Shown in pieces: positions 25,401 to 31,400 of a DNA stretch of 64,000 nt. Made by a program: the position numbers and the translations under genes. The stretch is from Hydrolagus colliei (taxonomy: Eukaryota). The stretch spans positions 3,968,001 through 4,032,000 of the forward strand of contig CM068751.1 in the NCBI GenBank assembly GCA_035084275.1, in the 5' to 3' direction. The notes under the pieces were generated by a model that searched no databases, had not been told where the DNA came from, and saw only the letters and a list, made by a program, of their open reading frames with translations. Each line of letters begins with the position of its first letter. Position 1 is the stretch's first letter.

Positions 25401-28400
25401 CAGGAAACAATTGGAGACATCTCTCCAGAGTACTGACAATGAGAAACAAGGACATTTCTTAAACATGTGTGAAGAAGCATGAACGCTAAACATGCTTTTG
25501 TATTCCTTGGGTTGAAAAAATGCTTTTAGGCGAATACTTGATTATCACACAAAGTCTTTCAAATACAGCAGTGTGCTGAGCCTAAATTTGGGGGATATTT
25601 AGATGTACATAATCATTTCTATCACTATGCCCAGCATACAGTAGATACAGTAGTGTTTTTTTTGCCTACATACCTCGAAGAATTCGCTCCTCATGGCATC
25701 GAAGAAAGTCCCAGATTCGAACTGTGCCGTCATCAGAACATGTGGCAAATTTATTATCCGTAGGTGAGAAACTGTTACATGAAGACACACAGTAGGGGAA
25801 AGAAGTCAGCATTTAACAGGAGCCGAAGTCAGCCCAATCTGGGGCATCTTCACATACACCTTCTCTACAAATGGATCCCAGAAATTAATAAGAATAACCT
25901 TAATGGCTTATTAAACAGGTCCTAAAGTCACAGGTTATACACTGCCAAGGACAAGATAAACAATTATATTTATTATGGCCACTGCCAAAAGATGGTGTAT
26001 CGAGATTGTTCAATGCAGGTTATTCCTTCAATGTCCTGAGAACTGCATGCAGTTATTATATTTAAATTTTATTACACTTGGGAGTTCATCTGTAAACACC
26101 CTTCTAAATGGCAACAGTAAGTAATTCTGTGTACTTATCCCAATTAATTAATGACTTTTAAAAAGATAGGATTGCATGGGGAGCTGTGAAACACATCAAG
26201 TGTTGCAGTTTTCAAACTTTGCCTGAGGAAATGGACAGGGAAAGCAATCGCCCAGAACAACGCTGAAATTTAAAGTCTGTTAGGGAATCTTGATAATCCG
26301 CCATTTCATTGGTGAAGAGTAAGGAGGGGGCTGATTGGCCCCCCACCCCTCCTTTCCACAAATTGGCAGATGGAGATAGGGCAATACAGATGAGAGGATA
26401 ATTTCTGGATGATAAATGTTCTCAATAACATTAATACCTAGTGTTTTCAATTACACTTTCCCAAAGAATTCAAACAAAAATAATGTTTTTGTTTAGGCAG
26501 CAGCTTGGCATGGTTTATGGGAATTTATGGAGGGACTGCGTGCAGAATACAAATCATCCAGCAATGTTCCAGTTGTGACCTAATATCTGATAATAAAGAC
26601 TTCCACAAATTGCAGGAATGATCAGGAATTTAGAATCGGAGTCAACAGGTCAGGGAAGGGTGATCTTAAGGCTGTTTTGAATTGAACAGTAAGTAACAAC
26701 TGATGTTGTATTCTGATATTTTATCATTCATAATTAATAAGAGATTTCTTGAGAAATATGCCATGTTGCTTAAGCATGAGAAGTTGTGAGGTACAATTCA
26801 ATGGAAAATATATTATTGTCAGAAAGAAATGTTACCCTGGGTTTAAATAGCCACGGTTTCTTGTTTAGAGATAACTACGCAAAGTTTTCTTTTACCAAGC
26901 AAGATTAAAAAACAGCTATTTCAGACAGCCTATCAGCACAATATCATGATTCTTGGACCAAACATACAACAACATTTGGGGACTCTCATTTATCCACCAA
27001 TTTCAAACATCTACAGGTGGCCTCCTCCAGCAAGGCAGATAACCGAGGTTTCTATGATTGCACATTTCAGTCAGAAAACCTTTTCCTGCATCAGCCACGT
27101 TTGCTGAGAGGTGAAAAGTATCTGCAAATGTCAAACCTAAGACACAACTTGTCGCATTGCAAGTGTTAAGATATTGCACAGGCATAGCCCCATTAGTCAC
27201 TTCACATCTAGTCTTCCATCAACTCTACCCACGTAAACATCAGTATCAATGTTGTGCGCCAGCTACTGATATTTTCATGAATGGACATCTTCAAGTGCTT
27301 CTAGTTTTGAACCTATGACTATTGCTGTCGTGGCCCCTTAACTGGCACGTTACGCCTGTTGCATTTGTCACCACGCCATGATCTGACAACTATAAAAGTG
27401 ACATCTAGTGGAAATACACTGGTAATAAAATACTTAATTTTAATGACACTTAAGGGGTGGGGGGGGGGAGGAAGGGGGACACATTCTCAGGATGTATGGG
27501 ACCTGGAAACTTTACAAACTAGAAAAAAAAATCATCCCTGTAAAAGGCTGATAGGGTTGTTTGCCTCCATTTTTCAAATTGAAAAGTCTTAAAAAGATTG
27601 ATCTGGCACGACCACAAAAAGTTTCTCATAATACTGAAAACTGTGACATCTTCTCGTTATAATGGAAACCCTGAATGGAATGGGCTGAACTTGTTTTATT
27701 GTTCTCTGACAGATTACAGCCCACAGTAACTAAGTTACTTTCTGCAAGACCCGCCATTTTATTTTATTTTGCTGGTGGAAATATATTTTTTAATCGTTTC
27801 AAATTTAATTTTGTTTTGCAGCTCTTGATTCCAGTGTTCCACTGTATGCAGTTGGATGTCCCCAGTAACCGTGGTCTAAGTATTTATTTTTAAATTCTTG
27901 TATATCACCACCGTTGGGATTCCGCTGACCATTTTACTTCAGTGTTGAAATTGGTTTTATTTCTGAAGTTTTAACCTTTATTCAGTTTTTTAAAAAAAGG
28001 AAATGCTTTATTTAAAAATGTAAAAATCTTGCTTACAAAGAACTCATAAGAGGAATACTCGTATACATTAGGACTGCAGCAAAGCTCACAGCAGTATAGC
28101 ATACTGCCAACATCCACATTTCTCAAGAATGGCAAAGTATAAATACTGCACCATAGTTCTATAATAGACAACGTGGCATTTTGTGTAAAAGAGGAAACAA
28201 ATGAAAATATTGAATATGAAATGTAGAGCATCGCTCCTAGGGTCTCCTGGAAACCATGCACAACTCCACCTAGAATACATTGAAATGATAATATAATACC
28301 AATCCCTACAGAAAACTGCATAGCATTAATCCACCTGGCCTCTCTAATCGCCTCCTTGTGAGCTTGGAACATCTTCACATTGTTCATGTTGGACTGCCAG

Positions 28401-31400
28401 TACTTTACATATCCACAATGGTCAGCTGTCAGCATCCACATGTCATTGTGAGACCAGGTCATGGCTCTGACCGGACTGTCATGAGCCTGTAGACAGAGAA
28501 AAACAGTTCCATTTGTTATACATTCTTATTTGCGCATTGTTATTGATAAAACTCTGCTAGCTAAACACCATTCACATTTTTAAATCACCCCAGCTTTTAA
28601 GTACACACTAACTTCGAGTTAGGAACAGAATTATGAATTCATGCTAATATCCCTTGAGCAGACTGCATAGTTAGGTTTGGGCTTCAACAATTAATTGATT
28701 AACTTCCCTTAGTGTTAAGAATTCCAGCTCCGATATCTAATATATATATAGAAGCGAAGAGCATTTTTACACCTGAATCAGAGGGCCCTTCTTTTCATTA
28801 CTACTACGTACAAATTCTTCCCACAATCAGTGAGCTGCAGGAAACACTCCATTCTCCTACCCCCCACCCAACCACTCCACCCCAGAAGATCCAGTGAAAA
28901 CCTTCATACCTGTAAAATAGTTTCAAAGTTAAATGTGAGCCCATTCCAGAGTGTGAACTCTCCACTTGAAGCACCAGTGACTAAACGCCTTCCTTCAGGA
29001 GTCCACTAAATATAGAAATAGACATGGTTACTCTTCTGTATGAGGAAATACATTACAATCTTTTAGATCACATTTTATACTACAAGTGGACAAATACAGG
29101 GTGACACTTTGCTTCCCGGAACCACAGGTCCACAGGACTCGCACTCCAATGATGCACCTTCTAATGGGATCCCTCTGTATAGCTATTCTGAATCTAAAAT
29201 CTTGATAAATTGACAAAACTGAGCAAAATCTTTCCAGCAAGTAAAAGTTTAGTACCACTTAGATCAGAGTCAAATATATCATTAATAGGTTTCCAGACTT
29301 GTGTCAGAATAAGATCCCTGTTGGTCATAATGTTACCTTCCTCCTGACATGAAAGGTGCTCTACAAATGTAATTTTGTTGTTGTTGTACCCCAAAATTAT
29401 TATCTTAAAACCATGCTTAAATTGTGAGGAAATACAGGATGCCCTGAGAAGCCCAAAGCAATTGGTTCACATTGAATATTGTGTGGTTGTGTCCTTTAAT
29501 TATAGAAATACTAGATATGATGTCATGTTCTTGTACAACATTCATTTCCCTCATCAATTTGTATATTGTATAAAGTGCTTTGAGACGTTTGTTTTTACAT
29601 GAAAGGCACAATGCAAGTGAATGTTATTTTTGTTTTCTCCTTGATAGATTTGACCTCCTGGGGTGCAGCAGAAGATCTTCCTCCAGCCCATTTGCAAAGT
29701 TCAGGTGGATTTGTGACACAGGGAGCAGCTATAAGGAGGGAGGGCTCTGGCCTACATTGACCGGTCGATAAGCAGAATTGGCTTCATAGCGGCCTGGTGT
29801 ATTTGCCAAAGCCTCTCACATGAAGACCTGGATTAAGCAGCTAATGCTGAATAAGCCTGGTACACTCACTTAGTATGCTGGGACGCTTAGACCTCGAGTA
29901 CATCACAATCTGTCCTCTAAAGCTCCTCCCACCATGCTGAATGCAAATGACCTAAGATAGCTGGTGATGAAACTTGGGAAAATAGCTACTGGAAGGTGTT
30001 AACTGGAGTCCCAAGTTTGTGAGCTTACATCTGTACATCCAGCCATAGAATCCACCTGGATTGGTTTGCAGGGAGGTAGGAAGCTGCTGCTCAAGCTCCG
30101 TACCTCCAACTGGTGGAATCAAGGATGCATGTCCAAGTTGTGGGCAGGAAGATGCTCATTTCATGCAGGAAGCTCACTGATACCGGGTATCCACATAATA
30201 ATGGTTCAGCCCCCACTTGTTGGATGTCAAATGACCAAGTAGCAACTATCTCCATTGTGGGAGGTAAGCACAGTCTCCCTGGAGCTGAACTGTTTCCAAG
30301 GTGACATGTTTGGTAATGGAATGTCAGCATCAAGCCAACCCTGTCTCAGTCATCCAATTCCATCACCTGAAGCAGGGTGGGTCTGCAGTTTTCAAGTAAT
30401 GCTGATGAAAGCCCAGTCAGAGTGGCTCATAAGCAGGACTTGGAAAGACAGCCCAGTCAAGCAGGACAGCAACTTTTTCCATTCAGCTCCTGTTAACTCT
30501 GCAAGTCAAAACTTTTAACAGGTAGGGGGGTCCTAGCTGCAAAAGCAGCAGGAAAGCTTGTCAGACAGTACTTTTGACAAGCTCTATGATTTCAGGTGGT
30601 TAGATCCAGCAGTACCCCCAACGCACACTCTAGGATGCCCAAGCCTGGCCTCTTGCCTTTTTGCATCTAATACTCCCCGGAATTAGGTAAACAGGATGCA
30701 TTCCTTCAGGGAGAGAATGCGCATTTCATTCCAATAGTATAGGTGGAAATGCATAGAACACTCTTTGGTTTCGATACCCTTAACATGGTGATGGGCTTCT
30801 GCATGTGTCAGACACTCTAACTAACCTAAATAACTTGTTGTGGATGATTCCATCCTATCATACCTTGCATTATAGTTAAAACACCTGCAACACATACTCC
30901 TTGCTCCCTGCTGACCAATCAACCCGTTACATGCACTGCTGAAGCAAAATGTAATTAGCAGTGAAATTTAGATTTTTGTTTTAATTTCTAATCCAATGGT
31001 ATACACAAGCCAATCTTTCTCATAGTTTGTAGTGAAGAAGTATGACATCAAGATAAAATATCAGAAGGATCACATCTTCAGTTTTAAATCCTATCTTAAA
31101 TGCTTGCGAGCAATACTTACCCTGACAACAAACACAGGACATTTCACTTTATTGGTTGAAGTTCGGACAAATTTTGTTGTTACTGCATTCATGGGATTCT
31201 TGAGCATTCCCATAGGTGGTACTAACTGGAATACAAAAGATCAGACAACATCAATACTAAGAAACAAATGACAAAATTATCAATTCAGGCTGCACCAAAC
31301 AGAAACTTCAGCTTAGTCAACAACAGAAACACAAGAGCTAAATGGAAATAGTATAAATCTACATTAATGGCAAATAAGACAAAAAACATAAGGTGCAATC

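Follow-up and report, generated by a model that had tools for sequence, protein, structure and literature searches.

The short isoform of WDR33, variant 2 (WDR33-V2, here V2), is reported to be located in the endoplasmic reticulum (ER) and to interact with STING and WIPI2. In this study, we analyzed a stretch of 64,000 nucleotides from the chimaera Hydrolagus colliei (contig CM068751.1, positions 3,968,001 to 4,032,000; hereafter the window, in whose coordinates all positions are given), in which the WDR33 gene shows an open read-through from exon 6 into intron 6. According to Liu & Manley 2024 (PMC11019558), V2 arises by intronic or exonic polyadenylation and was described in human cell lines, largely with tagged protein; tagged V2 was found in the ER, and V2 without its tail lost ER location and STING association. 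Human intron 6 is reported to splice slowly and its poly(A) sites to be weak (PMC11445923). Homologues of V2 were claimed in Drosophila and Nematostella by Liu & Manley 2024, whose evolutionary section offers hydrophobicity plots and a presence table (PMC11019558).

The isoform itself is already known and present in databases, and the H. colliei copy is a real, ancient orthologue. Sequence comparison supports the view that it is orthologous to the human-type V2 and that the isoform arose before jawed vertebrates split. New here is the anatomy of constraint, which combines a peptide-like proximal part with RNA-like distal, acceptor and exon-7 parts; on balance, we favor the reading that the chimaera orthologue of V2 is under two layers of selection. 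Among the titles and abstract openings searched, none on a frame mosaic or a conserved acceptor was found (subscription journals and bioRxiv supplements lay outside the coverage).

A read-through frame at the exon 6 donor

WDR33 lies on the minus strand of the window, where the variant 1 (V1) protein of Callorhinchus milii (P0025) matched exon by exon in tblastn, mostly with 90–100% identity. In the following, "bird" DNA refers to metagenome locus L002, whose translation is a bird-type V2 tail. The features of the locus are:

33282..33485, minus strand: first coding exon ("exon 2" in human numbering), ATG at 33485; tblastn with P0025 (100% identity) and joined frame
31584..31652, minus strand: exon 3; tblastn with P0025 and joined frame
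31121..31225, minus strand: exon 4; tblastn with P0025 and joined frame
28910..29005, minus strand: exon 5; tblastn and joined frame, intron 5 skipped in 4/4 contig runs
28335..28486, minus strand: exon 6 with the second WD repeat (Pfam WD40, E 1.7e-4); phase-2 donor CAG/GTGGAT, non-consensus
27971..28334, minus strand: intron-6 read-through with the V2-like tail, 120 codons plus TAA; homologous to amniote V2 tails
28080..28334, minus strand: proximal tail, in a frame common to chimaera, shark-type relatives and amniotes; bears the hydrophobic stretch shared by them (residues ~5–26)
27950..28040, minus strand: candidate intronic poly(A) cluster (TGTA at 28037; AATAAA at 28012, 27982 and 27961), overlapping the last codons and reaching past the stop
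25772..25819, minus strand: last 48 nt of intron 6, with a branch-point-like CTGAC, a mixed pyrimidine tract and the acceptor; 47/48 identical to bird
25674..25771, minus strand: exon 7; 91% DNA identity to bird, AATAAA at 25755–25750

Intron 6 extends from the GT of its donor at 28334 to its 3′ end at 25772, and the minus-strand frame stays open from exon 6 across this donor to a TAA at 27973–27971. Coding exons 2–6 (204 + 69 + 105 + 96 + 152 = 626 nt) and 364 intronic nt add up to 990 nt encoding 329 aa with one stop, so that recomputing the joined frame reproduced the read-through of the first-pass annotation. This is the build of V2, with exons 2–6 spliced and then read through in frame to a stop in intron 6. 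The first 209 aa of the product are identical to C. milii P0121, and the closing codons of exon 6 are near-identical to bird DNA. The read-through of 120 codons compares with 1–9 codons at the five other WDR33 donors tested (exons 2–5 and 7). These five carry GTRAG or GTATG, unlike the exon 6 donor, whose weakness was judged from the consensus alone and not from a strength score. The remaining two frames of the tail stretch contain 8 and 7 stops, and 0/500 base shuffles of the tail DNA reached an open frame of 120 codons. A repeat origin was rejected because the tail stretch has a single match in the H. colliei genome. No record lists an RNA carrying this stretch.

Homology of the tail

With exon 6 and the tail as query, the top 19 among the 120 matches listed were V2-type proteins of 303–328 aa, ahead of full-length WDR33; one of them is chondrichthyan-type, the others being of mammal, marsupial, bird or snake origin. 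Chondrichthyan V2 proteins with exons 2–6 and the tail are UniRef100_V9L1I1 (C. milii, 326 aa), which we take to derive from a cDNA, and its cluster mate P0001 from Logan (312 aa). A zebrafish WDR33 isoform 2 is found in RefSeq (NP_001019392.2, 290 aa). Given these entries and the homologues claimed for fly and sea anemone (PMC11019558), the isoform is not "hidden", as it had initially been called. In exon 6, a Cys replaces the Gly of DHGG at 28413–28411 (minus strand), a change common to H. colliei and C. milii that is seen neither in P0001 nor in amniotes.

Compared pairwise with ten amniote tails, the H. colliei tail alone reached z-scores of 5.5–11.6, with 8–12 for birds. The mammalian comparison used primate proteins, none of them named human; here, the macaque/baboon V2 (P0142) gave a modest score of 67 (maximum of 1000 shuffles 63, z 6.1) at ~30% identity to macaque (37/119 aligned columns). 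HHalign without the first 12 tail residues matched the chondrichthyan to the mammalian tails at 93% and to the sauropsid tails at 94%, with reversed controls below 1% and pairwise chondrichthyan-amniote E-values of 3e-7 and 9e-8 beyond residue 12. The tail is homologous to the mammalian V2 tail by these measures (HHalign 93%; pairwise z 5.5–9). CILG..HG..LG is conserved from chimaera to amniotes, and all motifs that the first-pass annotation had listed for human (AR.I....FSV, CILG, HG, LG, IF.FV) occur in order in P0142. The proposed alignment to human isoform 2 thus holds for its macaque/baboon counterpart and at the profile level, although the pairwise score is modest. At the DNA level, nt 1–430 of intron 6 aligned between chimaera and bird with a z-score of 19.6, whereas the control stretches (intron 5 and intron 6 nt 431–1290) gave no alignment (z −0.4 to −2.0). 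Together with the HHalign matches to amniotes (93–94%), this bears out the proposal that the tail predates the split of jawed vertebrates.

The 121-aa tail is, however, not a single conserved protein unit, as had been assumed: its distal third shifts frame (see below), and HHalign found no match of teleost, frog or invertebrate tails to chondrichthyan or amniote tails beyond ~12 residues (all <2%). These unalignable tails are still long and hydrophobic. Two teleost tail groups match each other at 96%; no profile homology was detected between vertebrate and invertebrate tails or between three invertebrate groups. Chimaera, bird and the teleost-type locus L003 all retain the ~10 codons past the donor (28334–28305, minus strand), which end in acceptor-like TTTTCTGTAG; beyond these codons, the teleost tail is unrelated to those of chimaera and bird. 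Chimaera and shark tails differ by 22 aa over ~99 codons.

A phmmer search of 1.84 billion representatives with the tail alone returned three proteins. One was the shark-type P0194; the other two, of repeat or low-complexity type, were considered chance matches. Amniote V2 fell short of E 1e-3. No Pfam match to the tail exceeded the cut-off. The Cys-rich patch pointed out earlier (~28105–28070, minus strand) is not kept in frame in amniotes and has a different sequence in P0001; for both reasons, its sub-threshold match to heat-stable enterotoxin ST (PF02048, E 0.003) was judged to be chance. Rfam gave two sub-threshold matches only in 25600–28500, also attributed to chance.

Contigs of related fishes entering intron 6

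Four coded contig runs (X1, X11, X12 and X14), assumed to be RNA, were compared over 27500–29100. Intron 5 is spliced out in all four. In X11 and X12, representing two related fishes, a single contig spans the junction of exons 5 and 6 and extends ~300 nt into intron 6, to 28033; compared with H. colliei, it shows 47 differing letters and 6 gap positions in 453 nt. These contigs support the existence of spliced transcripts running into intron 6 in relatives, as far as can be judged from their sequences.

Among the indels listed, those in the proximal tail are a 3-nt insertion (28295) and three deletions of one position each between 28176 and 28181 (X14), and indels across 28080..28334 amount to a net 3 nt; those at 27997–28032 are out of frame. 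In the close relative X1, 7 of the changes listed fall in the 364-nt tail compared to 27 in the 471 nt past the stop (p 0.007). The loose end of the X12 contig shows a stop, then AATAAA, and the contig ends just after the first hexamer. The X14 contig ends near 27926, and contig ends cannot mark RNA 3′ ends.

Two layers of constraint

Comparison of amniote tails with the three frames of the bird DNA revealed in-frame agreement over ~76 residues, followed by divergence. A motif at residues ~72–76 is in frame in 101/111 distinct amniote-type tails. Beyond it, 46 of the 111 tails follow the human-type frame, 36 the bird/snake frame, 16 a rodent/bat-type frame and two a marsupial one, one is mixed and ten have none or are short. 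Some of the shifted frames are possibly sequencing or annotation errors; even so, they recur in several proteins from birds and snakes and in the 312-aa RefSeq protein of mouse. One and the same hexamer is read as NK in human-type and chimaera proteins and as QIK in birds. The distal third of the tail, with its three conserved AATAAA, is in one frame in birds, in another in primates and in yet another in rodents. Over the first 51 tail codons, identity to bird by codon position is 0.69/0.69/0.51. The proximal ~50–85 codons are probably held in frame, as an open, hydrophobic and loosely specified peptide.

The three intronic AATAAA and the upstream TGTA align to bird, with 67–70% identity over 28014–27950, i.e. 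past the stop, and 38% thereafter. Human PAS0, a poly(A) signal, has a UGUA ~20 nt upstream (PMC11445923). In H. colliei, the first hexamer sits 33 nt upstream of the stop (28012–27971 region, minus strand), and cleavage there would therefore likely yield a non-stop mRNA; a stop precedes the hexamer in X12, and the human cut falls within the stop codon. Exon 7 has its AATAAA 16 nt past the acceptor, the position of human PAS3 (PMC11019558), and its synonymous divergence is reduced (proportion of synonymous differences, pS, 0.40 vs 0.58–0.77 in exons 4–6). A[A/U]UAAA signals characteristic of V2 are present both near the stop (28012, 27982, 27961) and in exon 7 (25755), and the locus has the conserved intronic hexamers and weak donor, in a 3′-processing gene, known from autoregulatory poly(A) sites of the PCF11/CSTF3 type. 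The 48-nt acceptor block is a candidate element behind slow splicing of intron 6. Its identity far exceeds that of other WDR33 acceptors in the chimaera-L002 comparison.

Hydrophobicity and STING

Of the two hydrophobic stretches originally noted, only the first reaches the threshold (KD19 >= 1.5), with a best 19-residue Kyte-Doolittle (KD) window of 2.08 at tail residues 7–25; the second (~1.3) remains below it. A peak from residues 5–8 onward is common to chondrichthyans and amniotes. Bird lacks the second mammalian peak (tail residues 76–101), which falls where the frame shifts. Hydrophobicity above shuffles was found in 7/10 invertebrate tails tested (fraction at most 0.037). An AlphaFold model of P0121 (42 sequences, pLDDT 31) was uninformative and set aside. 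By analogy with human V2, the tail likely anchors the short WDR33 protein in the ER. A gene for a STING ligand-binding domain is present in the H. colliei genome (contig C19, three Pfam matches above cut-off), making a comparable STING role possible. Its exons show open frames (G000:C19:4257340-4258613; L082, L083).

Wider sampling of WDR33 loci

In order to place the window among further WDR33 loci, the best 80 of 148 metagenome loci were kept. The same phase-2 intron was present in 62/80, the other 18 being without intron or unparsed. These 62 loci and the window formed 40 clusters, of which two were cut by contig ends, leaving 38. A read-through of at least 40 aa was observed in 31/38 clusters, window included (median 72), vs 12/76 other frames (median 17). 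One clade accounts for 18 clusters; the other 18 invertebrate clusters comprise 12 long tails, one of 37 aa and five of 0–13 aa. Within the 18-locus clade, the first conserved anchor, 58–82 nt from the donor, is in frame in 17/18 (6/7 distinct lengths), and a shared hexamer near nt 270–330 is spread randomly over the frames (6/7/5). In this clade, the first 30 codons have a pN/pS of 0.59 and the later ones ~1; the share of 3n gaps declines along the intron (0.57, 0.44, 0.32, 0.24), these pairwise values being non-independent and supportive at most. The junction recurs in a named beetle protein (P0286), whose hydrophobic tail measures 41 aa. In teleost-type tails, QHC is in frame in 57/83, at 21 different offsets. 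The L004 group, L007, L008, L013 and L028 keep the intron and AATAAA with a read-through of 0–13 aa, i.e. no V2-like tail.

Elsewhere in the window, 3700–4500, 46600–47800 and 62800–64000 are GC-rich or CA/GT-type tandem or simple repeats with long spurious open reading frames on both strands.

Discussion

The non-consensus donor, the 120-codon open frame and the conserved hexamer cluster together indicate that part of the WDR33 transcripts likely end in or retain intron 6, which would give a 329-aa protein with two WD repeats. As suggested by the human work, slow splicing of intron 6 would compete with cleavage at weak sites, and V2 would leave the CPSF (cleavage and polyadenylation specificity factor) complex, with the tail needed for ER location. 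Selection would then act in two layers, keeping the proximal 50–85 codons as a peptide and the distal third, donor, 48-nt acceptor block and exon-7 hexamer as RNA, while the distal frame drifts.

Several observations weigh against this reading. The chondrichthyan evidence for V2 transcripts consists of contigs of assumed RNA nature, which reveal neither a 3′ end nor a poly(A) tail or protein, and the X1 contig is still within intron 6 beyond 27500, as would equally be expected of unspliced RNA. The KD peak of the tail is matched by 35% of base shuffles in chimaera (p 0.35) and 61% in bird. The dN/dS (omega) comparison proposed at the outset was made for chimaera and bird: over 73 aligned codons omega is 0.70 and pN/pS 0.81 (95% interval 0.57–1.25, spanning 1), and the 0.37 of the first 51 codons comes from a cut picked after inspection (Fisher p 0.05); WDR33 exons show 0.006. 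Tails of 0–14 aa occur in 6/38 clusters, and protein-database tails are skewed to long ones by a 94-aa floor. Tagged variant 2 is listed in the nucleoplasm (PMC2839517, Table 3), and endogenous V2 protein is reported as undetected for want of an antibody (PMC11019558).

Rather unlikely, but the strongest of the alternatives, is that intron 6 serves as an RNA attenuator like PCF11 PAS1 or CSTF3 intron 3, through which the protein that reads poly(A) signals would restrict the full-length mRNA of its own gene, the tail merely disposing of the truncated WD fragment as a degron or by sequestration. It is indeed RNA elements that are best conserved (47/48 positions in the acceptor block, 91% in exon 7, and the hexamer surroundings beyond the stop); the distal frame is free, and the short-tailed L004 group, L007, L008, L013 and L028 keep their hexamers. 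The intronic tail of CSTF3 is reported to destabilise its protein (PMC3708835), and V2 is proteasome-sensitive and stabilised ~8-fold by V3 (PMC11019558). However, knockdown of FIP1 or CstF64 leaves V2 unchanged and that of CFIm25 lowers it, with V1 unaffected by any of the three in human cells (PMC11445923); deletion of the tail region led to STING and autophagy phenotypes (PMC11019558), and long in-frame tails with above-chance hydrophobicity in most invertebrate tails tested would not be expected. The text examined on WDR33 contains no feedback or WDR33-knockdown test.

We consider it improbable that jawed vertebrates have, from their beginnings, kept the tail as a membrane domain that binds STING in a sequence-specific way, as the first-pass annotation proposed. 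The dependence of human V2 on its tail for ER location and STING association, the STING gene in H. colliei and the kept CILG..HG..LG agree with such a domain, whereas V3 binds STING without such a tail (PMC11019558), the frame shifts across the second hydrophobic peak of mammals, and neither teleost nor frog tails can be aligned beyond ~12 residues. That the T-rich intron stays open by chance, which would agree with the shuffle-level KD peak as T-rich DNA encodes hydrophobic peptides, is hardly credible in view of the shuffled frames, the 1–9 codons at other donors, the bird DNA alignment and the HHalign matches.

This locus provides evidence at the sequence level that both the tail and its RNA signals date to the first jawed vertebrates. 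It also divides intron 6 into parts that can be tested separately: the proximal peptide, constrained in frame, the hexamer cluster, free of frame, the near-invariant 48-nt acceptor and the exon-7 hexamer. The published 1.5-kb intron deletion removes both RNA signals and tail and therefore does not separate protein and RNA roles. The ancestral anchor is predicted to be the proximal hydrophobic stretch and not the distal mammalian one. Tentatively, and with considerable doubt, intron 6 could be a bilaterian-wide switch in the gene of the poly(A)-signal reader, in which a property rather than a sequence is selected. This property may be an open hydrophobic frame of ~40–120 codons followed by poly(A) signals; teleosts, frogs, beetles and several invertebrate clades may have rebuilt it from sequence that is unrelated. 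If so, the state of 3′ processing or splicing would be coupled to an ER-tethered WD fragment, and STING regulation would be a later use of a generic anchor.

Comparison with known systems

Human WDR33v2 (rat NET14) shares with the H. colliei locus the intron, the N-terminal 208 aa with two WD repeats, a tail of ~120 aa, a hexamer in the last codons with UGUA upstream (PAS0-like) and a hexamer 16 nt into exon 7. In contrast, the distal part in H. colliei is a frame mosaic, and 33 nt separate its first hexamer from the stop (12 in human). The C. milii protein V9L1I1 is identical at 110/115 positions over the tail, differing by one extra residue near the tail start and by its last codons. Zebrafish NP_001019392.2 has the same build of exons 2–6 and intron 6, with a tail that aligns over ~10 residues only. 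As further 3′-processing factors, PCF11 has vertebrate-conserved intronic tandem hexamers (intron-1 PAS1, PMC6458999) and CSTF3 a weak donor with an intronic site (intron-3 pA, PMC3708835). Their short products are reported as undetected, and feedback was demonstrated (PMC6458999, PMC3708835). Unlike both, WDR33 has kept a long frame in many phyla.

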